Notes: a model not told the origin generated them from the letters alone. Positions 2,850 to 21,061 are shown, counted from the first letter of the stretch. The stretch: 39,494 nucleotides of DNA from a virus (IMGVR_UViG_2711768073_000020:1-39494); one strand, 5' to 3'. Translations and numbers: made by a program.

Positions 2850-3154
2850 TATTTCACCTCTTGCTGTGACATTGTTGAAAAATGGATACCAGCTCGTTGC
2901 TGCCAGACGATCCAACCGAGAGTCATATCCCATGCCATGTATTCGTTATTGCCGTTTTTTGCTCTCCGACGATCTACTAAGTCACCGAAACGCTTTTCCA
3001 TGAATAATTCATAAGCTTCGCGTTCATCTGGTTCTACTTCCAGAGATAGGAGTGCGATTTCATAAGCACGGCGCTCAATATCGTCTCGCACGTCAAGGCT
3101 GCTGATACGCTCTTTAATTTCTTTAATCAGTTCTTTGTCGGTAAAAGTGGTCAT
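2849..3154 (-). CDS. Hypothetical early protein (YfdT-like by size and position), 101 aa
   Basis: ORF translationally coupled to neighbours (ATGA overlap with the upstream gene at 3154); no recognisable motif. Confidence 0.5.
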   Translation of the reverse strand: MTTFTDKELIKEIKERISSLDVRDDIERRAYEIALLSLEVEPDEREAYELFMEKRFGDLVDRRRAKNGNNEYMAWDMTLGWIVWQQRAGIHFSTMSQQEVK

Positions 3155-3516
3155 TATGCTCCAGCCTCCGGTGCTTTTGGCATTACTGCCCAGTGAGTGA
3201 TATTGACGTTTTCAAGGTCCCCGACCTGAAATGTCCACTGCCATTCTCCGGTTTCTTTTTGTCCCCAGGTGTACCAGAGAGAACGCCAACCAATTAGCCA
3301 GCCTTCTCCGTTAGCATCGAATAACAAAACACTTTCATTTGCTGGTGGCAGTTCAGTTGACACTGGTATTACTTTGTTTTCCTGTGCTGCACATTTAGCT
3401 TCAAGCGCATCGAATTTACGCACCAGGTATTCAGAATCTGTTTCATTTACTTTCAGATCTCGCGGTACACATCTCCCACGAAGAAACCCTTCCATTTCGA
3501 AAACATTCATGCGCAT
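3154..3516 (-). CDS. DUF551-type phage protein (YfdS-like), 120 aa
   Basis: W-rich C-terminal region (GWLIGWRSLWYTWGQKETGEWQW) typical of DUF551 proteins of lambdoid early regions; overlaps the upstream gene by 10 nt. Confidence 0.5.
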   Translation of the reverse strand: MRMNVFEMEGFLRGRCVPRDLKVNETDSEYLVRKFDALEAKCAAQENKVIPVSTELPPANESVLLFDANGEGWLIGWRSLWYTWGQKETGEWQWTFQVGDLENVNITHWAVMPKAPEAGA

Positions 3517-4043
3517 TTGCGTAACTCCGATAACTCGTTAAAGCGTTCCATAAACATCCCGTAGGCATGGCCCGGTGCCAGTGGAATCACGTTGAACATC
3601 TCTGTTGCCGGGATACCTTCCAGTACAGGCCAGAAAGAGCCATCATCAAGCCCGAGATCGCGGCGTTCGGTTGCCAGCATGATGAGATCGGCATATTTCA
3701 CGGGCGTACTCATAACTGGGGGTAATCCGTATTTCTCACGGATTACGGAGTCTATTTTTTCTTCCATTTGTTTATAGTCAGGAAGAAGGCGTTTCAGTGG
3801 TGCGGGAATGTCCTGGCAATACGCTTCTGTTGCATCATGCATTAACGCTTCAAAAGCAAATTCCTGCGGCACCAGCTGGCTGCAAAGAACCGCATGTTGG
3901 GCGACGCTGTAGAAGTGCGAAAGATGACCGGCAAAGCGACAGATATTTGAAAGGGAAACCGCGATATCGTTAATATCGATGTCGTCTTTATTTATCCTGT
4001 CATAATAAAAATGCTTCCCGGAAAAAGTTTTAATAAATGACAT
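3507..4043 (-). CDS. HD-domain phosphohydrolase / 5'-deoxynucleotidase-like protein (YfdR-like), 178 aa
   Basis: H...HD motif (FAGHLSHFYSVAQHAV ... ALMHDATEAY); likely true start is the ATG at 4043 preceded by GGAG (the ORF-track start at 4070 is a GTG). Confidence 0.65.
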   Translation of the reverse strand: MSFIKTFSGKHFYYDRINKDDIDINDIAVSLSNICRFAGHLSHFYSVAQHAVLCSQLVPQEFAFEALMHDATEAYCQDIPAPLKRLLPDYKQMEEKIDSVIREKYGLPPVMSTPVKYADLIMLATERRDLGLDDGSFWPVLEGIPATEMFNVIPLAPGHAYGMFMERFNELSELRKCA

Positions 4044-6492: not shown

Positions 6493-7167
6493 TTAGGCTT
6501 TGATTTTGTATCTTCTTGGTTTTCCTGAGAAAATCACTGTACCAATTATAGAGCAATTACCGTTGATCTTAATGTAAGGCTCAGGCCAGTTTGGGTTTAA
6601 CGCTTTGAGATAACGCTGTGTCCCATCTTCTATCAACCTTTTGAAGGTGGTTTCGCCTGTATCGTGCATCAATGCAATAACGTCGTCACCGTGGCAGGCA
6701 GGTACTTCAGGATCGACAAAAATCATGTCTCCCGGGCGGTACTCATCAATCATTGAATCACCTATCACCCGCAAGATATAAGTCATTTCCCCACAGGGTA
6801 CAGGGCAGGGATACGTTTCTGCTGTGCTCAAATCAACCTCAGAATATCCAACTTCTTTCCATGCTCCGGCCTGTACCCATGATATGACAGGGACTAATGT
6901 GATTTGTTTATTAGTGATTGAAACATCAGGTTTTTTTGTGATGTTCGTTGTCTGGTGTTCTTGATCGAGCCATCCGACAGGCAGGTCGAAACATTTTTCG
7001 ATGTGTCGTGCCATGCTGTCACCGATATTTTTAGTAGCACCATCTCCCATAAACCTGCTGGTCTGGGTTGGCTCGCGATCAATCATAGTGGCAAAGGAAG
7101 AATTCCCGCCAACACCATCTCTCAGTTTTCTGGCGTTAGACCGCCGGATGTCATGGATTGTTTTCAT
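6493..7167 (-). CDS. cI: CI-type prophage repressor (HTH plus S24 LexA-like peptidase domain), 224 aa
   Basis: C-terminal self-cleavage domain with Ser motif (VIGDSMIDEYRPGDMIFVDP) and a downstream Lys (TTFKRL); divergent from a cro-like gene across an operator-rich 90-bp spacer. Confidence 0.85.
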   Translation of the reverse strand: MKTIHDIRRSNARKLRDGVGGNSSFATMIDREPTQTSRFMGDGATKNIGDSMARHIEKCFDLPVGWLDQEHQTTNITKKPDVSITNKQITLVPVISWVQAGAWKEVGYSEVDLSTAETYPCPVPCGEMTYILRVIGDSMIDEYRPGDMIFVDPEVPACHGDDVIALMHDTGETTFKRLIEDGTQRYLKALNPNWPEPYIKINGNCSIIGTVIFSGKPRRYKIKA

Positions 7168-7182
7168 AACGAAATTAAAACC

Positions 7183-7252
7183 CTTGTACCGTTAAGGTAC
7201 AAGTATCTTGAAGGTTCATTTCAATCATGTAATATGTACACCGGAGGTACAT
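7183..7252. promoter_or_regulatory. OR region: two palindromic operators plus candidate PR (-35 TTGAAG 7208-7213, -10 TAATAT 7230-7235)
   Basis: Perfect palindrome CTTGTACC-GTTAA-GGTACAAG (7183-7203) and ATGTACA-CCGGAG-GTACAT (7234-7252) between divergent cI and cro; GGAGG RBS at 7243-7247 before the cro ATG. Confidence 0.55.
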
Positions 7253-7257
7253 ATTGT

Positions 7258-7458
7258 ATGAAAGCGTATTGGGACTCTTTAACCAAAGAACAGCAGGGCG
7301 AGTTGGCCGGAAAAGTTGGCTCAACACCTGGCTACTTACGGCTGGTTTTCAATGGCTATAAAAAAGCCAGTTTTGTGCTGGCTAAAAAACTTGAGCAATG
7401 CACGTCAGGTGCAATTACGAAATCTGACTTAAGACCGGATATCTATCCGAAAGATTAG
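7258..7458 (+). CDS. cro: Cro-like HTH regulator (YdaS/Cro family), 66 aa
   Basis: MKAYWDSLTKEQQGELAGKVGSTPGYLRLVFNGYKK...; GGAGG RBS; divergent from cI. The 167-aa ORF-track version (from 6955) overlaps the cI promoter region and is rejected. Confidence 0.6.
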   Translation: MKAYWDSLTKEQQGELAGKVGSTPGYLRLVFNGYKKASFVLAKKLEQCTSGAITKSDLRPDIYPKD

Positions 7459-7489
7459 CAGAACACTTTCAATTTTTAACCACAGAACG

Positions 7490-8053
7490 ATGAGGCTAAC
7501 CGTGGGTAAGCATCACTGGAAAATAGAAAAACAGCCTGAGTGGTACGTGAAAGCTGTCAGAAAAACTATCGCGGCGTTGCCGGGTGGTTACGCTGAAGCG
7601 GCTGACTGGCTCGATGTAACAGAAAACGCTTTATTCAACCGCCTTCGTGCAGATGGCGATCAGATTTTCCCGCTGGGATGGGCAATGGTTTTACAGCGTG
7701 CTGGTGGCACTCACTTCATTGCTGATGCTGTGGCGCAGTCTGCAAATGGCGTCTTTGTGTCTCTTCCTGACGTCGAGGATGTGGACAACGCCGATATCAA
7801 CCAACGCCTGCTGGAAGTCATTGAACAGATCGGCAGTTATTCAAAACAGATTCGTTCAGCAATTGAAGACGGTGTAGTGGAACCGCATGAGAAGACAGCA
7901 ATTAACGATGAGCTGTACCTCTCAATTTCGAAGCTGCAGGAGCATGCAGCACTGGTCTACAAAATCTTTTGCGTTTCAGAAAGTAGTGACGCCCGCGAGT
8001 GTGCAGCTCCGGGCGCCGTGGCGTGTCGTGACTGTGGAGAAACTAACGCATGA
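7490..8053 (+). CDS. CII-like phage regulatory protein (YdaT/CII-family position), 187 aa
   Basis: Immediately follows cro; alternative GTG start at 7502 has a better RBS (GAGG); C-terminus has a Cys cluster ([14 protein letters not shown]). Confidence 0.45.
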
Positions 8054-13018: not shown

Positions 13019-13035
13019 TTTGGTGGAGAAAGTTG

Positions 13036-13401
13036 ATGCGTGATATTCAGATGGTTCTGGAGCGTTGGGGAGCATGGGCGGCGAGTGATAGTTCTGGAGT
13101 AGACTATTCGCCTATAGCTGCTGGGTTTAAGGGGCTTCTTCCCTACACAAGCAAAACACGTCAGGCTTGTTCAGATAGTGATGCATTAATTATTGAAGGT
13201 TGTCTTGCTCGTCTAAAGCAAAAAAAGCCAGATGAGCACTCGCTGCTTGTGGCACATTATTTATACAGAATATCCAAGCGTAAGATTGCAAAGGTGCGTG
13301 GAAAGGATGAAAAATTGGTACGCATAGAAATACAACTAGCCGAAGGATTTATTGATGGTTGCCTTTCAATGTTGGATGTTAACCTTGAAATGGACGCTTA
13401 G
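13036..13401 (+). CDS. Late-gene antiterminator Q (phage-82/DLP12 QuuD-type small Q), 121 aa
   Basis: MRDIQMVLERWGAWAA...AAGFKGL...RLEMD pattern of the small Q family; GGAG RBS 8 nt upstream of ATG 13036. Confidence 0.75.
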   Translation: MRDIQMVLERWGAWAASDSSGVDYSPIAAGFKGLLPYTSKTRQACSDSDALIIEGCLARLKQKKPDEHSLLVAHYLYRISKRKIAKVRGKDEKLVRIEIQLAEGFIDGCLSMLDVNLEMDA

Positions 13402-13407
13402 GGTTGC

Positions 13408-13437
13408 ACAGGTTGGCCCCATATGAGGCCAACCTGT
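13408..13437. other. Perfect 11-bp-stem hairpin between convergent Q and the membrane-protein gene
   Basis: ACAGGTTGGCC-ccatatga-GGCCAACCTGT; starts 7 nt after the Q stop and overlaps the minus-strand gene's stop codon; no U-tract on either strand. Confidence 0.4.
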
Positions 13438-13886
13438 CACAAGTGGGGGAAGATTTTTCGTAACACTAACCAACACCTTCCGAAGGTATATAGCGAAATT
13501 ATAAGGGAGGATAAGCCTAACAGTATGAATAGGAAATCAATAGGTTTGCCCGCAACAATAACATCATCTGGTAGAAACATCGCTATCAATGGAAATATAC
13601 ATGCGACGATGAGAGTTAACCCTGTTGAAAGTAATCGATTTACCAGAGTTGGTAACACGTTGTTTTGCTTAAGGGCATTAATTGCTCCTTCCTTATCGCT
13701 GTTTGCACTACTAAATATAGATATTGCAGCCAGAACAAAACCAAACAGGATGCCTGATATAGTCGAGAGCACCCCCGCTGTTGTGAGTACGTCAGCATGC
13801 TTCATCGGTTTAAACAGTTTTGTCGCTGCATAGGTCAACAGAATCCAGAGGACGCATTTCCAGAGAAAAGTGGCTAATTCTCTCAT
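13437..13886 (-). CDS. Small integral membrane protein with four predicted TM helices (RexB-like architecture), ~149 aa
   Basis: Four hydrophobic segments (LATFLWKCVLWILLTYAA; VLSTISGILFGFVLAAISIF; LLSTGLTLIVACIFPLIAMFL; IDFLFILLGLSSLIISLYTF); GGAGG RBS before ATG 13886; 21 nt downstream of the 313-aa gene on the same strand; AT-rich by eye. Confidence 0.6.
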   Translation of the reverse strand: MRELATFLWKCVLWILLTYAATKLFKPMKHADVLTTAGVLSTISGILFGFVLAAISIFSSANSDKEGAINALKQNNVLPTLVNRLLSTGLTLIVACIFPLIAMFLPDDVIVAGKPIDFLFILLGLSSLIISLYTFGRCWLVLRKIFPHL

Positions 13887-13907
13887 TGTGTCCTCCATGC
13901 TTGGTTA

Positions 13908-14849
13908 TTAGTCTCTGCTAGCGAGCTCATACTGTGCAAGATAGTTCGCGTTATCAATTTTAGCAGATATCATCGCCGTTCTGATATCAGAATCGGATGG
14001 ATAACCGCTTTTGACAATGATTGTCTTTGTACTGACCAATACTTGGTCAAGTAGACTTTTGGGCGTTCTATTGGATGGCTCTGTTACATCAATTTTTTTA
14101 ATTTTTAGACCTCCAGAACCTTTTGGAAAAAGTTCAAGTAGTTCCTTAATAGCATCGGTGACAGAAGTTTTTAGATAGTTAAAACCTTGTTTTTTCGGGC
14201 GAATCCGACCTCGCATATTTAATCTTAGATGCGACCCGCCCATACCAACAACCATGTCAATAATTTCATTAGCTAAAGGGTTTTTAATCTTATAATTAGC
14301 TTTGTTAAAGTTTCTTGGAGCAGCAACTATAAGATCGAAACTACGTAGGATATTTCCGTCCTCAAGCAGTTCCTTCATGCTCTCTTGTTTCCAAATGGCT
14401 TCAAAAGTGACGCTTTTTAAATCAGTTTTGTTATACAAAATGAATGCCAGATCATTTACTTTGGGCCCTATATGGTTGAGGGTCATAGCTAATAAGTCCG
14501 TTTCGTAGTAATAGATAAAATATGTTCTTTCAACTACAGAATCTTTATCATTTAAAGGAATTGTTCTCTCACTACCTGTAGCATCCTCGATGAACGGTAG
14601 TAGGCATTCCCTTCTCCACGATACGTAACCAAAGTAACATTGCAGTGTGGTATCTTTTTGAAGAATAACTAACTTTAACCCTCGATTTGGGGTGTCTGTT
14701 GTGTAAGTTATTGGAAAAGTTACAGTATCTGCTGTGGTCATTTGCTCAAAGGCTAGTTTTGCAGCAGATGTGCCATCTTTTTTGCTTCCATTACCAGTGA
14801 AAAAACCAACTCTCACTCGCCTGGTTTTATTCTTATTTTCTGTACTCAT
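13908..14849 (-). CDS. 313-aa soluble protein of unknown function, co-operonic with the 4-TM protein (candidate RexA-like sensor)
   Basis: Basic N-terminus (KNKTRRVRV); no enzymatic motif recognised; AT-rich coding sequence, antisense to all flanking phage genes; candidate promoter on the minus strand upstream (TTGTTG...TAAAAT). Confidence 0.6.
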   Translation of the reverse strand: MSTENKNKTRRVRVGFFTGNGSKKDGTSAAKLAFEQMTTADTVTFPITYTTDTPNRGLKLVILQKDTTLQCYFGYVSWRRECLLPFIEDATGSERTIPLNDKDSVVERTYFIYYYETDLLAMTLNHIGPKVNDLAFILYNKTDLKSVTFEAIWKQESMKELLEDGNILRSFDLIVAAPRNFNKANYKIKNPLANEIIDMVVGMGGSHLRLNMRGRIRPKKQGFNYLKTSVTDAIKELLELFPKGSGGLKIKKIDVTEPSNRTPKSLLDQVLVSTKTIIVKSGYPSDSDIRTAMISAKIDNANYLAQYELASRD

Positions 14850-14910
14850 TATCGATCCGAAATAATTTTAGCAACCGTGTGAAAAATACAACAAAAAAAA
14901 GAGGAAATCA

Positions 14911-14939
14911 TTAGCGCGGTCCGCAAAAAACATTGTAAT
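14911..14939 (+). promoter_or_regulatory. Candidate late promoter PR' (-35 TTAGCG, 17-nt spacer, -10 TGTAAT)
   Basis: Only plausible sigma-70-like promoter upstream of the intrinsic terminator at 14972-15003 and the lysis cassette; weak -35. Confidence 0.3.
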
Positions 14940-14971
14940 CTGTTAAGAGTGGTTACTTCGCCACACAGCTT

Positions 14972-15003
14972 AAACCCGCCGTCGAGCGGGTTTTGTCGTT
15001 TCT
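14972..15003 (+). terminator. Intrinsic terminator (tR'-like) upstream of the lysis genes
   Basis: Stem AAACCCGC / GCGGGTTT with loop CGTCGA followed by TTTTGTCGTTTCT. Confidence 0.6.
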
Positions 15004-16328: not shown

Positions 16329-16461
16329 TACACCTGTACCGTTTATACCCAACCCACTGACGTATGGTGCAAGTCTTGATTTGAATGTAAGTTTGTTATC
16401 CGCGTTGGCTCAATGTAATAGGGATAAGTCTGATATCAGAATCATTGATAATCAAAATTGA
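16213..16461 (+). CDS. o-spanin (Rz1-like) lipoprotein, ~82 aa
   Basis: Signal peptide plus lipobox MMIVLHVLCLLPLLTGC, Pro-rich mature part; starts inside Rz in a different frame and extends 133 nt beyond its stop. Confidence 0.6.
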   Translation: MMIVLHVLCLLPLLTGCGSTRTVYVNTPAVPLPASLTSDTPVPFIPNPLTYGASLDLNVSLLSALAQCNRDKSDIRIIDNQN

Positions 16462-16664
16462 TGTATATTTTTATCGTCATGTAGATAACGAACAAGGTAT
16501 TCCTCTGATACGTTTCGTTGAATACAGGTCATGGGTAGGCATTGCAATATCGCTTCGAAATTATCTGTGATAATGCTCTTAATTTTGAATGTATGTATTT
16601 GGGAAAAGAGATAAAGTAATAGTCTAATTAATGGAGATATCCACAAAACACAAAAGGGACTATT

Positions 16665-17171
16665 ATGCGACCAGATCAATTTTTCTATCCAGATACTTTT
16701 ACCTTTAATTCATCCACCTATTATGGTCAACGTGACTCATCTAAAGGTCGATTGTATATTCCTATTGAAAGTGACTTATGTCCATTTAATATCGGCGATA
16801 TCATTGTGCAAAAAATGGTCGACAGGGAAAGACTATTTGAAGTGCTTGATTACGAGGTGCAAATTAGTCTCGAGGCTGGTTGCCCTGGCTACTCACATTT
16901 GGCGGTATTGATAGTGAATGCATTGGATGTAAAAGAGAAGCCGAAGCAGATTACGACCCATTTGACGTTTAACGGTGCTATTAATGCTGGTGGTGATTTT
17001 CAAGCCGGTAATGACAATTCGATCACAAAGAATATAACCATTCAACAACTACATGATGCTATAGAGCATTGCAATGATCCAGAGGTTAAAAGCCTTTGGC
17101 AAAAGCTATTGGAAAATCCGACGTTTGCTTCAATTGCTTCAATATTGGCAAAAAGTGCTTTAGGACAGTAA
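16665..17171 (+). CDS. Hypothetical cargo protein, 168 aa (AT-rich, between lysis and packaging genes)
   Basis: AAGGGA RBS 6 nt upstream; preceded by a ~200-bp AT-rich spacer and followed by its own terminator; no signal peptide or motif recognised. Confidence 0.5.
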   Translation: MRPDQFFYPDTFTFNSSTYYGQRDSSKGRLYIPIESDLCPFNIGDIIVQKMVDRERLFEVLDYEVQISLEAGCPGYSHLAVLIVNALDVKEKPKQITTHLTFNGAINAGGDFQAGNDNSITKNITIQQLHDAIEHCNDPEVKSLWQKLLENPTFASIASILAKSALGQ

Positions 17172-17180
17172 TTCATCAAG

Positions 17181-17202
17181 CCCCATTCAATATGGGGTTT
17201 TT
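17181..17202 (+). terminator. Intrinsic terminator after the 168-aa gene
   Basis: CCCCAT-tcaat-ATGGGG followed by TTTTT. Confidence 0.65.
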
Positions 17203-17228
17203 ATGCTTATTACAAAGAGTTTTCTTCA

Positions 17229-17579
17229 ATGCCACCACGAACTCCAAAAGCCTGCCGTGTTCGCGGGTGCCGCCGTACCACCACTGACCCGTCAGGTTAT
17301 TGCGAAAGCCACAAAAGCGAAGGCTGGAAGCAATACAAGCCAGGACAATCCCGTCATCAGCGCGGCTACGGTTCGAAGTGGGACGTTATCCGCGCGCGTG
17401 TGCTGAAACGTGACAAAGGTTTATGTCAGTTATGTCTGCGCGCTGGTGTGGTGCGTGAGGCGAAAACTGTTGACCACATCATCCCTAAAGCGCATGGCGG
17501 CACTGATGCCGACTGTAATCTGCAGAGTCTGTGCTGGCCGTGTCATAAGGCGAAGACGGCCCGTGAACGGTTGAAGTGA
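17229..17579 (+). CDS. HNH endonuclease (terminase-associated), copy 1, 116 aa
   Basis: Cys-rich zinc motifs (CRVRGC...CESH) and HNH core (DHIIPKAHGGTDADCNLQSLCWPCH); 5' part only ~88% identical to copy 2 at the DNA level. Confidence 0.8.
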   Translation: MPPRTPKACRVRGCRRTTTDPSGYCESHKSEGWKQYKPGQSRHQRGYGSKWDVIRARVLKRDKGLCQLCLRAGVVREAKTVDHIIPKAHGGTDADCNLQSLCWPCHKAKTARERLK

Positions 17580-17704
17580 TAATAATTCTCAACTGCCTGA
17601 GGGGAGGGGCGGGTCAAATCCCTGCGGCCTGACGTCTTCCGGACTGCCCGCCCCATCGTTTTTTTATACCCGCGAAAAATGAAATTTAACCAGGAGTGCC
17701 GCAT
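17580..17704. other. Candidate cos / packaging region between HNH and TerS (copy 1)
   Basis: GC-rich dyad GGGGCGGG...CCCGCCCC followed by TTTTTTTATAC; in HK97-type phages cos lies between the HNH gene and the small terminase gene. Confidence 0.3.
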
Positions 17705-18190
17705 ATGGCTGGAACGGCGGGGCGTTCCGGGCGTCGCCCCAAGCCAACGGCGCGCAAGGCGCTGGCCGGAAACCCCGGCAAGCGAGCCCTGAATAAAGAT
17801 GAACCTGTTTTTACGCCCATCAAAGGTGTTGAGCCACCGGAATGGTTCGCTGAAGAAGATCTCCCTCTCGCTACGATCATGTGGCAACTGACAACTAAAG
17901 AACTCTGCGGTCAGGGCCTGCTGTGCGTGACTGACCTCGCGGTGCTTGAGCGGTGGTGCGTGGCCTATGAGTTCTGGCGACGTGCCGTGAAAAATATTGC
18001 CAGCCAGGGCAACACCATTACCGGTGCAATGGGCGGTATGGTCAAAAACCCGGAGCTGACCGCCAAGAAAGAACAGGAGTCCGAGATGAGCAGCACGGGG
18101 GCAATGCTCGGACTCGACCCCAGCAGCCGCCAGCGTCTGATTGGCCTGGCGGGGAAGAAGAAAGCCACTAACCCGTTTCTGACAATCTGA
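17705..18190 (+). CDS. Terminase small subunit (P27 family), copy 1, 161 aa
   Basis: [14 protein letters not shown]... with AGGAG RBS 8 nt upstream of ATG 17705; protein identical to copy 2. Confidence 0.75.
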
Positions 18191-18203
18191 AAATCATCGA
18201 ATC

Positions 18204-18388
18204 ATGAGCCGGAAATCTTACCCCAACGTAAATGCTGCCAATCAGTATGCCCGGGATGTCGTGCGCGGAAAGATTGTGGCCTGCCAGTTTGTGATTCAGG
18301 CCTGCCAGCGCCATCTTGATGACCTGATGGCGGAAAAAAGTAAGTCGTTTCGTTACCGCTTCGACAAGGATCTGGCTGAACGGGCCGC
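18204..18388 (+). pseudogene. Terminase large subunit, 5' fragment (first ~62 codons) truncated at an IS3 junction
   Basis: Matches the first ~185 nt of the intact TerL gene at 21075 and diverges after 18388, where IS3-derived sequence begins. Confidence 0.8.
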
Positions 18389-19038
18389 ATTCCACGCAGA
18401 TTATGCCGCTTCAGTTGCGCCTGATAATCTGCTGAACAGTACTGGCCTCCACGGTCCGTGTGAACGATAACGTTCCGGGGCCTCTTACGCCGCCACAGCG
18501 CCATCTGCAGGGCATCGCAGGCCAGTTGCGCCGTCATGCGTGGCGACATTGACCAGCCAATAACGGCACGTGACCACAGGTCAATGACCACTGCCAGATA
18601 CAGCCAGCCTTCATCTGTACGTAAGTACGTGATGTCTCCTGCCCACTTCTGGTTCGGGCCACTGGCGTAAAAATCCTGCTCCAACAGATTTTCTGACACA
18701 GGCAGGCCGTGTGCGCGGTAGCTGACCGGGCTGAACTTCCGGGAGGCCTTTGCCCTCAGTCCCTGACGGCGCAGGCTTGCCGCCACGGTTTTTACGTTAA
18801 AGGGGTAACCCTGAGCACGCAGTTCATCCGTCAGGCGTGGGGCACCGTAACGCTGTTTTGACCGGGTAAAAGCCGCGAGGACAACGCTGTCGCAGTGTTG
18901 GCGGAACTGCTGACGCGTGCTTATCCTTGTCCGCCGCTGACACCACGTATACCAGCCGCTGCGGGCCACCCGGAGCACGCGGCACATTGCTTTGATGCTG
19001 AACTCAGCCTGATGTTTTTCAATAAAGACATACTTCAT
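18389..19038 (-). pseudogene. insF: IS3 transposase InsF (OrfB), 3'-truncated
   Basis: [36 protein letters not shown]...QLKRHNLRG matches IS3 InsF, then reads into non-IS DNA. Confidence 0.8.
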
Positions 19039-19334
19039 TTCAGGCGCTTCGCGAAGTATGTCGCGGCCTTTTGGAGGATAGCCAGCTCTTCATCCCGTTC
19101 TGCCAGCTGGCGTTTGAGACGTGCAATCTCGGTAGACATCTCCAGTTCACGTTCAGAAGACGTCTGCTGATTTTGCTGTTTACTGCGCCAGTTGTAGAGC
19201 TGTGATTCATACAGGCTGAGTTCACGGGCTGCGGCAGTAACACCGATGCGTTCAGCAAGCTTCAGGGCTTCACTGCGAAATTCAGGCGAATGCTGTTTAC
19301 GGGGTTTTTTACTGGTTGATACTGTTTTTGTCAT
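19035..19334 (-). CDS. insE: IS3 InsE (OrfA), 99 aa
   Basis: [54 protein letters not shown]... from ATG 19334. Confidence 0.85.
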
Positions 19335-19396
19335 GTGAGTCACCTCTGACTGAGAGTTTACTCACTTAGCCGCGTGTCCACTATTGCTGGGTAAGA

Positions 19397-19613: not shown

Positions 19614-19949
19614 TCATCGATAGAAAAACTTTACAGCCCACTCGTAAACAGCTTTGTAAATCGGTTCATGGTAAATACTATCGATACTATTCAGATGTGC
19701 GATCATCGCCTCCACAGTTGTAGTGGTTGTTTCTAATATTTCGATTATTGCAGGGCGGTCATCATCTTCATCGAAGTATTCGAACAGCAGTACAGGTTTA
19801 CCATGCAATTCAGCATCTGAGACTCTAAGGTTACAACTACCGCTCAACTCAAAGTGAATTTTGTAATTACCTTCTACAGAATGGCCTACGGGGAAAAAGT
19901 ATAGGGTGTCATCTTTGTTCAAAAGCCATGCCCATTCATAACTATTCAT
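19614..19949 (-). CDS. Hypothetical acidic protein, ~111 aa (AT-rich island between the IS3 fragment and packaging module 2)
   Basis: AGGAG 7 nt upstream of ATG 19949; poly-Thr/acidic stretch (DEDDDRPAIIEILETTTTT). Confidence 0.45.
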   Translation of the reverse strand: MNSYEWAWLLNKDDTLYFFPVGHSVEGNYKIHFELSGSCNLRVSDAELHGKPVLLFEYFDEDDDRPAIIEILETTTTTVEAMIAHLNSIDSIYHEPIYKAVYEWAVKFFYR

Positions 19950-20099
19950 TTGTGAACTCCTGTTCATTGAGTTTCAACAACTATCAACTACATCCAGCGA
20001 AGCATAAAAGATCGTTTATGGCAAAACCGGAATGGAGTGCGATTCGATTCTGAGAAGGGTGCCACGTATCGTACGCGAACCATCCAAGAGGATTATGCA

Positions 20100-20450
20100 A
20101 TGCCCCCACGAACCCCAAAAGCCTGCCGCGTTCGCGGCTGCCGCCATACCACCACTGACTCGTCAGGCTATTGCGAAAGCCACAAAAGCGAAGGCTGGAA
20201 GCAATACAAGCCAGGCCAGTCCCGACACCAGCGCGGTTATGGTTCGAAATGGGATGTTATCCGTGAACGTGTGCTCAAGCGTGACAAAGGCCTGTGCCAG
20301 TTGTGCCTGCGTGCTGGTGTGGTGCGCGAGGCGAAAACCGTTGACCACATCATCCCTAAAGCGCATGGCGGCACTGATGCCGACTGTAATCTGCAGAGTC
20401 TGTGCTGGCCGTGTCATAAGGCGAAGACGGCCCGTGAACGGTTGAAGTGA
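20100..20450 (+). CDS. HNH endonuclease (terminase-associated), copy 2, 116 aa
   Basis: Same HNH motifs as copy 1; AGAGGA RBS 7 nt upstream of ATG 20100. Confidence 0.8.
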   Translation: MPPRTPKACRVRGCRHTTTDSSGYCESHKSEGWKQYKPGQSRHQRGYGSKWDVIRERVLKRDKGLCQLCLRAGVVREAKTVDHIIPKAHGGTDADCNLQSLCWPCHKAKTARERLK

Positions 20451-20575
20451 TAATAATTCTCAACTGTCTGAGGGGAGGGGCGGGTCAAATCTCTGCGGCC
20501 TGACGTCTTCAGGACTGCCCGCCCCATCGTTTTTTTATACCCGCGAAAAATGAAATTTAACCAGGAGTGCCGCAT
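20451..20575. other. Candidate cos / packaging region between HNH and TerS (copy 2)
   Basis: Same GC-rich dyad and T-tract as copy 1 with 3 substitutions. Confidence 0.3.
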
Positions 20576-21061
20576 ATGGCTGGAACGGCGGGGCGTTCCG
20601 GGCGTCGCCCCAAGCCAACGGCGCGCAAGGCGCTGGCCGGAAACCCCGGCAAGCGAGCCCTGAATAAAGATGAACCTGTTTTTACGCCCATCAAAGGTGT
20701 TGAGCCACCGGAATGGTTCGCTGAAGAAGATCTCCCTCTCGCTACGATCATGTGGCAACTGACAACTAAAGAACTCTGCGGTCAGGGCCTGCTGTGCGTG
20801 ACTGACCTCGCGGTGCTTGAGCGGTGGTGCGTGGCCTATGAGTTCTGGCGACGTGCCGTGAAAAATATTGCCAGCCAGGGCAACACCATTACCGGTGCAA
20901 TGGGCGGTATGGTCAAAAACCCGGAGCTGACCGCCAAGAAAGAACAGGAGTCCGAGATGAGCAGCACGGGGGCAATGCTCGGACTCGACCCCAGCAGCCG
21001 CCAGCGTCTGATTGGCCTGGCGGGGAAGAAGAAAGCCACTAACCCGTTTCTGACAATCTGA
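20576..21061 (+). CDS. Terminase small subunit (P27 family), copy 2, 161 aa
   Basis: Identical protein to copy 1; immediately followed by the intact large subunit. Confidence 0.8.

Follow-up and report, generated by a model that had tools for sequence, protein, structure and literature searches.

What is an AT-rich pair of antisense genes doing between the Q antiterminator and the lysis genes of a lambdoid prophage? The question is raised by IMGVR_UViG_2711768073_000020:1-39494 (hereafter the window, meaning this whole stretch of 39,494 nucleotides), which represents a lambdoid Escherichia coli prophage integrated next to proA/tRNA-Thr. On its minus strand lie two open reading frames (ORFs), gene A (13908-14849, 313 residues) and gene B (13437-13886, 149 residues), and RefSeq labels the product of each "hypothetical protein". 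An earlier note on this DNA, made from the sequence alone, had proposed a Rex-like abortive-infection module, either a distant relative of lambda Rex or an unrelated membrane-effector system. We consider that the pair is probably a divergent RexAB-type abortive-infection or exclusion module, carried as accessory prophage cargo between Q and the late promoter, because each component points independently to the matching Rex partner, because gene order and sizes agree, and because the pair behaves as mobile and diversifying cargo.

The large protein, the product of gene A, has no hydrophobic segment in a Kyte-Doolittle scan, an isoelectric point (pI) of 9.3 and a basic N-terminus, which agrees with the earlier description of it as soluble with a basic N-terminus. 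The protein itself has no Pfam match at E<=1, with PF20505 (DUF6731) and the RexA family PF15969 included in that search; its homologs at 45-61% identity carry PF20505, and it is also assigned to PHROG 7651. When a family profile was searched against 1.84 billion representative proteins, 172 relatives were found, and a sample of 69 of them contained 61 DUF6731 proteins. On the evidence of these profiles, the large protein is classed as a divergent branch of DUF6731. In the RexA fold, a globular beta-sheet domain is split by an alpha/beta dimerisation domain, and the predicted model of the large protein has the same collinear layout, a split globular domain with an inserted alpha/beta domain. 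Among 48,164 chains, RexA was the single outstanding structural match.

The sequence profiles of the large protein point in the same direction. An hhalign comparison of DUF6731 with the RexA-family profile gave an E-value of 9.9e-5 and a probability of 58% over 221 collinear columns, while the reversed control gave E 0.15. The DUF6731 hidden Markov model (HMM) scored up to 16.2 bits on RexA-family members, as compared with 6.6 bits for the best of 720 shuffles, and one DUF6731 member matches the Pfam RexA model (E 2e-4). These comparisons indicate that the large protein is probably a remote homolog of RexA and not a member of the RexA family. It should be mentioned that the specific resemblance suggested in the earlier note, SFDLIVAAPRNFNK against the RexA stretch DIVIKPKFK, was off by one strand; the profile alignment pairs RexA DIVIKPKFKRDIK with LRLNMRGRIRPKKQGF.

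The small protein, the product of gene B (PHROG 8552, E 2e-44), is predicted to be a four-helix inner-membrane protein. It had been credited with four clear hydrophobic helices; four long helices are indeed present in the AlphaFold2 model (residues 2-24, 30-60, 77-104, and 116-145; predicted local distance difference test score 80), but the Kyte-Doolittle scan finds only three strong hydrophobic segments, and the N-terminal helix falls below the threshold. As modelled, it is thus a protein of about 145 residues with four transmembrane (TM) helices, encoded directly downstream of gene A, the arrangement expected of a RexAB system. The small protein itself matches neither the Pfam RexB model (PF15968) nor the PADLOC RexB model. 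When profiles of 14 remote family members and four canonical RexB proteins were aligned by hhalign, the probability was 84% (E 7e-6) over 120 of about 145 columns; reversed RexB gave E 0.48 and the cross-family controls gave E of about 0.35. The most remote small-protein homolog (P0130), which hhalign joins to the small-protein family with a probability of 99.2%, matches almost the whole PADLOC RexB model (E 2e-4) and is encoded directly after a DUF6731 gene. All of the comparisons share one register, a conserved P...H-x-D loop followed by a Gly/Ser/Ala-rich second helix, and in the remote members the basic loop after the second helix resembles RexB SRTRRLAKIREYGY.

Several results weigh against a Rex assignment. 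In the curated libraries (PADLOC 2023, Pfam, and NCBIfam), neither window protein matches RexA, RexB or defence models, and a PHROGs scan places the two proteins only in two families of unknown function (7651 and 8552). Neither the close Enterobacterales family of the large protein (A1) against RexA (hhalign, P 0.04) nor the close family of the small protein (A6) against RexB (hhalign, P 0.03) gave a significant alignment, and the same was true of single-sequence hhalign comparisons of the large protein with RexA and of the small protein with RexB. Because these direct close-family comparisons are not significant, the argument for Rex homology depends on remote relatives as intermediates. An hmmsearch of all PDB sequences with the DUF6731 profile did not retrieve RexA and returned only chance-level eIF2-alpha; the probability of the DUF6731-RexA alignment dropped from 58% to 10% when a faster alignment was used; and a Foldseek search of the viral models in BFVD gave only unnamed phage proteins. 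Since the sequence signal is weak, is lost in the PDB-wide search and is sensitive to the alignment, the fold is the main evidence for the large protein. The genomic setting also differs: all canonical rexAB loci that we examined follow a cI-like repressor and the window cassette does not, although some actinophage Rex systems are likewise detached from the repressor (RexA paper). Finally, a scan for consensus promoters found no canonical sigma-70 site upstream of gene A.

Could the likeness to Rex then be superficial, and the pair be some other membrane-associated prophage cargo, such as a cytoplasmic helper paired with a superinfection-exclusion protein that stops DNA from entering, or a toxin-antitoxin-like addiction pair? 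The silence of the curated models, the weak sequence signals that need intermediates, and the structure search in which the four-helix bundle of the small protein matches generic four-helix bundles only would all be explained in this way. In mycobacteriophage Butters, moreover, the roles of the two Rex-like proteins are reversed, and a Rex-like architecture therefore does not fix the mechanism. Against this reading stand two independent components that each point to the matching Rex partner, with reversed and cross-family controls negative, RexA as the lone outstanding match among the chains searched, and the gene order and sizes of RexAB, and we regard a superficial likeness as quite unlikely. 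Another candidate was suggested by the protein sizes. Kiwa pairs a small four-TM protein with a soluble protein of about 310 residues, sizes akin to those of the window pair, so that the small protein might be a KwaA-type sensor and the large one a KwaB-type effector (DUF4868). Kiwa was rejected: the window proteins gave no PADLOC or Pfam match to it and the structure search was topped by RexA, so that this reading is effectively refuted and has almost no probability left. Of the two possibilities raised in the earlier note, the profile and fold evidence for both components thus favours a distant Rex relative over an unrelated system.

The two genes are inherited as a pair. Gene B follows gene A directly in 79 of 80 viral loci, and the lone exception has a truncated gene A; among remote loci with enough flanking sequence, the order is kept in 15 of 15. 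Gene B often overlaps gene A. In the window, the two genes are separated by a spacer of 21 nucleotides (13887-13907, minus strand) that carries a GGAGG Shine-Dalgarno element 5 nucleotides before the ATG of gene B, so that the minus-strand coordinates, the spacer and the ribosome-binding site given in the earlier note all proved correct when read from the sequence. The spacer with its GGAGG and the conserved A-B order imply that the two genes form one operon. An alternative in-frame ATG for gene B at 13898 would add four residues and has no Shine-Dalgarno element; the gene B homologs are all 145-149 residues long, and the RefSeq start also gives 149 residues. Both are genuine genes under purifying selection, because the ratio of non-synonymous to synonymous substitution (dN/dS) is low (0.05 for gene A and 0.11 for gene B against an 85%-identical allele) and 79 of 80 related viral loci retain intact cassette ORFs. 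In farther alleles, synonymous sites are saturated and the non-synonymous divergence is only 0.1-0.2.

The composition of the cassette sets it apart from the rest of the prophage, as the earlier note had supposed. Its GC content is 0.392, as compared with 0.513 for the whole window, and in sliding windows the value is 0.37-0.43 at 13200-15000, as against 0.53-0.58 on the left-hand side and about 0.50 on the right-hand side. At third codon positions, the GC content of the cassette genes is 0.32 and 0.41, as compared with 0.45-0.55 in the neighbouring genes. It should be added that Q is likewise AT-rich (0.434). That the cassette sits between Q and the lysis genes, away from cI, was borne out by the gene neighbours: Q (13033-13401, plus strand; PF06530, Pfam E 8e-52) is convergent with the cassette, and the holin, lysozyme and Rz genes (from 15146, plus strand) also lie on the opposite strand, so that the pair is antisense to its flanking genes.

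The boundaries of the cassette can be drawn from its relatives. In phage PhiR49_2, whose Q is 77% identical, there is no cassette, and the homologous stretch of 100 bp begins right at the final bases of Q. Beyond gene A on the right, an alignment of 11 alleles shows that a stretch of about 60 bp, the AT-rich and allele-specific leader of gene A (14850-14909, minus strand), varies among alleles, whereas the block at about 14910-14958 is kept in every allele examined and is followed by a terminator at 14972-14993. Because PhiR49_2 lacks the cassette, the block is conserved and the leader is allele-specific, the cassette is accessory DNA, an insert of about 1.5 kb (13402-14909) that falls exactly between Q and the region that we take to contain the late promoter. 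The backbone block on the right (14910-14993, plus strand; the GCGGTCCGC palindrome at 14916-14924, then ...TTAAGAGTGGTTACTT, and the intrinsic terminator at 14972-14993 found by a terminator scan) is presumed to be the late promoter or Q-utilisation site with tR', and it marks the right boundary of the insertion; late transcription is directed away from the cassette. The palindrome itself, a perfect GCGG-N-CCGC, is invariant in all cassette alleles, in a block that normally lies directly after Q, and is a candidate Q-binding element for Q proteins of the PF06530 type.

On the left, a GC-rich hairpin (13404-13442) with a 13-bp core stem (GGTTGGCC.../...GGCCAACC) lies between the convergent Q and gene B; it fills the 35 bp from the Q stop to the gene B stop and overlaps the stop codon of gene B. 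Its RNA fold has a free energy of -27.3 kcal/mol (z -5.1), and none of 200 shuffles was equally stable (0/200). The hairpin has no U-tract and is probably a terminator or an insulator. As for the start of transcription, the leader (14850-14909) is the presumed home of the cassette's own promoter, and it is with low confidence that we place the promoter there. A candidate extended -10 element, TGcTAAAAT (14873-14865), is only partly conserved among alleles, and a GGAT Shine-Dalgarno-like element (14858-14855) is kept among the closer alleles in the alignment of 11.

The cassette is also variable. In many viral loci, the adjacent DUF968 gene is 98-99% identical to that of the window and Q about 88% identical, while the cassette proteins are only 45-54% identical. 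In other words, divergent cassette alleles have been swapped within one backbone, since 45-54% identity is found between near-identical flanks, and the same figures place a recombination boundary inside or beside Q. Loci of this kind occur among the viral contigs L010-L089 (for example, L047-L052 and L055-L082). Among 5,426 complete E. coli genomes, 73 carry the allele of the window; the orf54/orf53 pair of the cdt-I converting phage is an allele of about 45% identity; and further alleles are found in prophages of Salmonella, Citrobacter, Yersinia, Serratia, and Pectobacterium. In two Pectobacterium prophages (L005, ~6843-7691, and L006, ~2852-3712), an Endonuclease_NS gene lies between the pair and the holin gene; this non-specific nuclease is encoded on the late-gene strand and does not occur in the E. 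coli window. In the coliphages ON470608.1 (30277-31179) and ON470622.1 (15473-16375), a 45%-identical DUF6731 homolog is labelled "portal (connector) protein", which is probably a misannotation.

In the Enterobacterales, the same Q family is convergent with the pair in 73 of 78 viral loci, and one Q family in one slot, with the cassette adjoining the presumed late promoter, is what would be expected if a Rex-related pair served the life cycle of the prophage itself, tuning induction, late expression or the timing of lysis. Lambda Rex offers precedents: RexB modulates proteolysis, and one report (PMC11077077) describes RexA as a DNA-binding protein that biases the CI/Cro switch towards lytic growth independently of RexB and of exclusion. 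Such a role would sit poorly with PhiR49_2, in which the 77%-identical Q does without the pair, and with alleles whose divergence far outpaces that of the backbone, an unusual pattern in a housekeeping phage regulator; the strict co-inheritance of A and B also favours a joint function. In addition, the pair occurs without Q or lysis neighbours in a tailless Vibrio prophage and in chromosomes of Halomonas, Paraburkholderia, and the Saprospiraceae. We therefore think it unlikely that the pair serves mainly the prophage's own life cycle.

The pair also occurs beyond the Enterobacterales. The hosts of the remote loci are Halomonas, Vreelandella, Aeromonas, Pseudomonas, Pseudoalteromonas, Paraburkholderia, Nitrosomonas, Sulfuritalea, and a Saprospiraceae genome, so that the pair spans the Gamma- and Betaproteobacteria and the Bacteroidota. 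The tailless Vibrio example (L112; PQ189356.1, 1389-2896) consists of a 351-residue DUF6731 relative (34% identity) and a 150-residue partner, directly after an integrase gene, in a 14.6-kb prophage of Vibrio cyclitrophicus (Vinavirales, PM2-like); unrelated virus lineages therefore share this pair. In named genomes, a scan with a degenerate motif picked up 13 loci, none of them in V. cholerae, and there were no attC-like repeat arrays around the two Pseudoalteromonas copies.

By analogy with lambda Rex and with two divergent systems described below, RexABpp and Sucellos, we infer that the two proteins act as sensor and effector, that they damage the membrane and give a defence phenotype, and that they are expressed in lysogens. 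The large protein would be a cytoplasmic protein with a two-domain RexA/RdgC-type fold, probably dimeric and DNA-binding, that acts as the infection sensor; its pI of 9.3 is the sole hint here at non-specific DNA binding like that of RexA. The small protein would be the effector, a RexB-like four-helix protein of the inner membrane. In the lysogen, its own promoter would drive expression of the pair in the direction away from the late operon, which is silent there. The trigger might come from a superinfecting phage, either as a phage protein or as a protein-DNA intermediate of replication or recombination, and the triggered large protein would then activate an oligomeric small protein. The activated small protein would permeabilise or depolarise the membrane, growth would be arrested and the infection would be aborted.

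We can speculate further that DUF6731 and its partner split from Rex long ago as a sister lineage and respond to triggers of their own, and that the placement beside Q is functional and allows the module to silence itself on induction. In the lysogen, the cassette would be transcribed freely, and only the hairpin without a U-tract parts it from the convergent Q; once the prophage is induced, antiterminated early transcripts that extend through Q would run antisense over both genes and silence them. Such silencing would give the prophage immunity to its own module, as a counterpart of the shut-off of pRM for lambda rexAB, and the alleles of about 45% identity in near-identical backbones would reflect an arms race over trigger recognition. 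We hold this elaboration to be doubtful.

Apart from the cassette, the window contains other features of note. A direct duplication of about 1 kb (17215-18190 and 20086-21061, with 18202-19343 between the copies; start-to-start distance, 2,871 bp) was found, and a repeat finder aligns its first 300 nucleotides (17215-17514 with 20086-20385) at 89% identity. The duplication yields two small-terminase (Terminase_4) genes, at 17696-18190 and 20567-21061, with identical Pfam scores. Between the copies lies an IS3-family element on the minus strand (orfA, 19035-19343; orfB, 18202-19038), and two unassigned ORFs at 19614-19967 (minus strand) and 20032-20445 (plus strand) are also flanked by the copies. 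The duplication and the IS3 element may disrupt or rearrange the packaging module. A second AT-rich patch (16400-17200; GC 0.34-0.40) lies just after Rz and contains an ORF of 168 residues (16665-17171, plus strand) with no Pfam or PADLOC match. In a related E. coli prophage, the slot after Rz is occupied by an iss/bor lipoprotein gene, and this patch therefore looks like another cargo slot.

What do these observations mean for the many phage genes of this type? A divergent RexAB-type reading gives a testable functional assignment, a RexA-like sensor and a RexB-like membrane effector, to DUF6731, PHROG 7651, PHROG 8552 and the pairs now registered as "hypothetical". It would also make Rex-type systems far commoner than the "five described systems" of the 2026 literature, since they would extend over the Proteobacteria and Bacteroidota and over tailed and tailless prophages, and it would mean that the versions of the defence-annotation models tried here miss the DUF6731 branch. 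The place where Q meets the late promoter is a slot at which otherwise near-identical phages trade divergent alleles of a single defence-like module. No new mechanism is revealed, and the novelty is modest because divergent RexAB-like pairs that Pfam misses have already been published and experimentally validated (PMC12894663; bioRxiv 10.1101/2024.07.02.601686).

Among the known systems, lambda RexA/RexB (PF15969/PF15968; PDB 8TWQ) is the natural reference. It excludes T4 rII and other phages by a membrane depolarisation that RexA triggers and that depends on RexB, and RexA forms dimers and binds DNA non-specifically. Like the window pair, it is a prophage-borne two-gene operon in which the gene for the soluble protein comes first, and the sizes are close (313 and 149 residues in the window, 279 and 144 in lambda). 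RexB is a four-helix membrane protein to which the small-protein family of the window aligns over nearly its full length, and the two share the P...H-x-D loop before a G/S/A-rich second TM helix. Unlike the lambda proteins, those of the window have no match to the Pfam or PADLOC Rex models and belong to a separate family, DUF6731 with its partner, that is broad across the Proteobacteria and Bacteroidota. Canonical rexAB follows cI and shares its transcription from pRM; the window pair instead sits in the gap that separates Q from the late promoter and is read antisense to the late genes.

For part of the wider family, a link to defence has already been proposed on computational grounds, because remote members match the PADLOC models PDC-M67A and PDC-M67B, which represent a computational candidate only and not an established system. 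Six of the 69 remote DUF6731 members match PDC-M67A (best E 8e-8) and one partner protein matches PDC-M67B (E 1e-3); the window proteins themselves match neither model. A literature search on DUF6731, PF20505 and PDC-M67 found no paper in the library searched.

RexABpp (PP_5643/PP_5644) of the Pseudomonas putida prophage P1 has been shown to defend, and overexpression of its A protein leads to membrane damage that depends on the B protein (PMC12894663). It resembles the window pair, by description, as a divergent RexAB-type prophage cargo whose four-TM partner has no detectable similarity to RexB, and it was identified by structure and HHpred and not by BLAST (PMC12894663). RexABpp was recognised on bioinformatic grounds similar to, or weaker than, those for the window pair. 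It differs in that RexBpp has at least 181 residues and in that the locus lies near the repressor.

The second validated example is Sucellos (SclA/SclB) of the V. cholerae chromosomal integron, which has a RexAB-like structure and no Rex Pfam match; it has its own promoter, requires both genes and gives an abortive phenotype, SclB is predicted to be a transmembrane pore, and copies outside integrons are mainly prophage-borne, often in Salmonella (bioRxiv 10.1101/2024.07.02.601686). SclA/SclB are taken to be VCA0367-0368. Like the window pair, Sucellos is a two-gene cassette, and the window family includes members from Salmonella, Vibrio and Nitrosomonas; on this comparison, which is by description only, it is plausible that the window family and Sucellos are one and the same.

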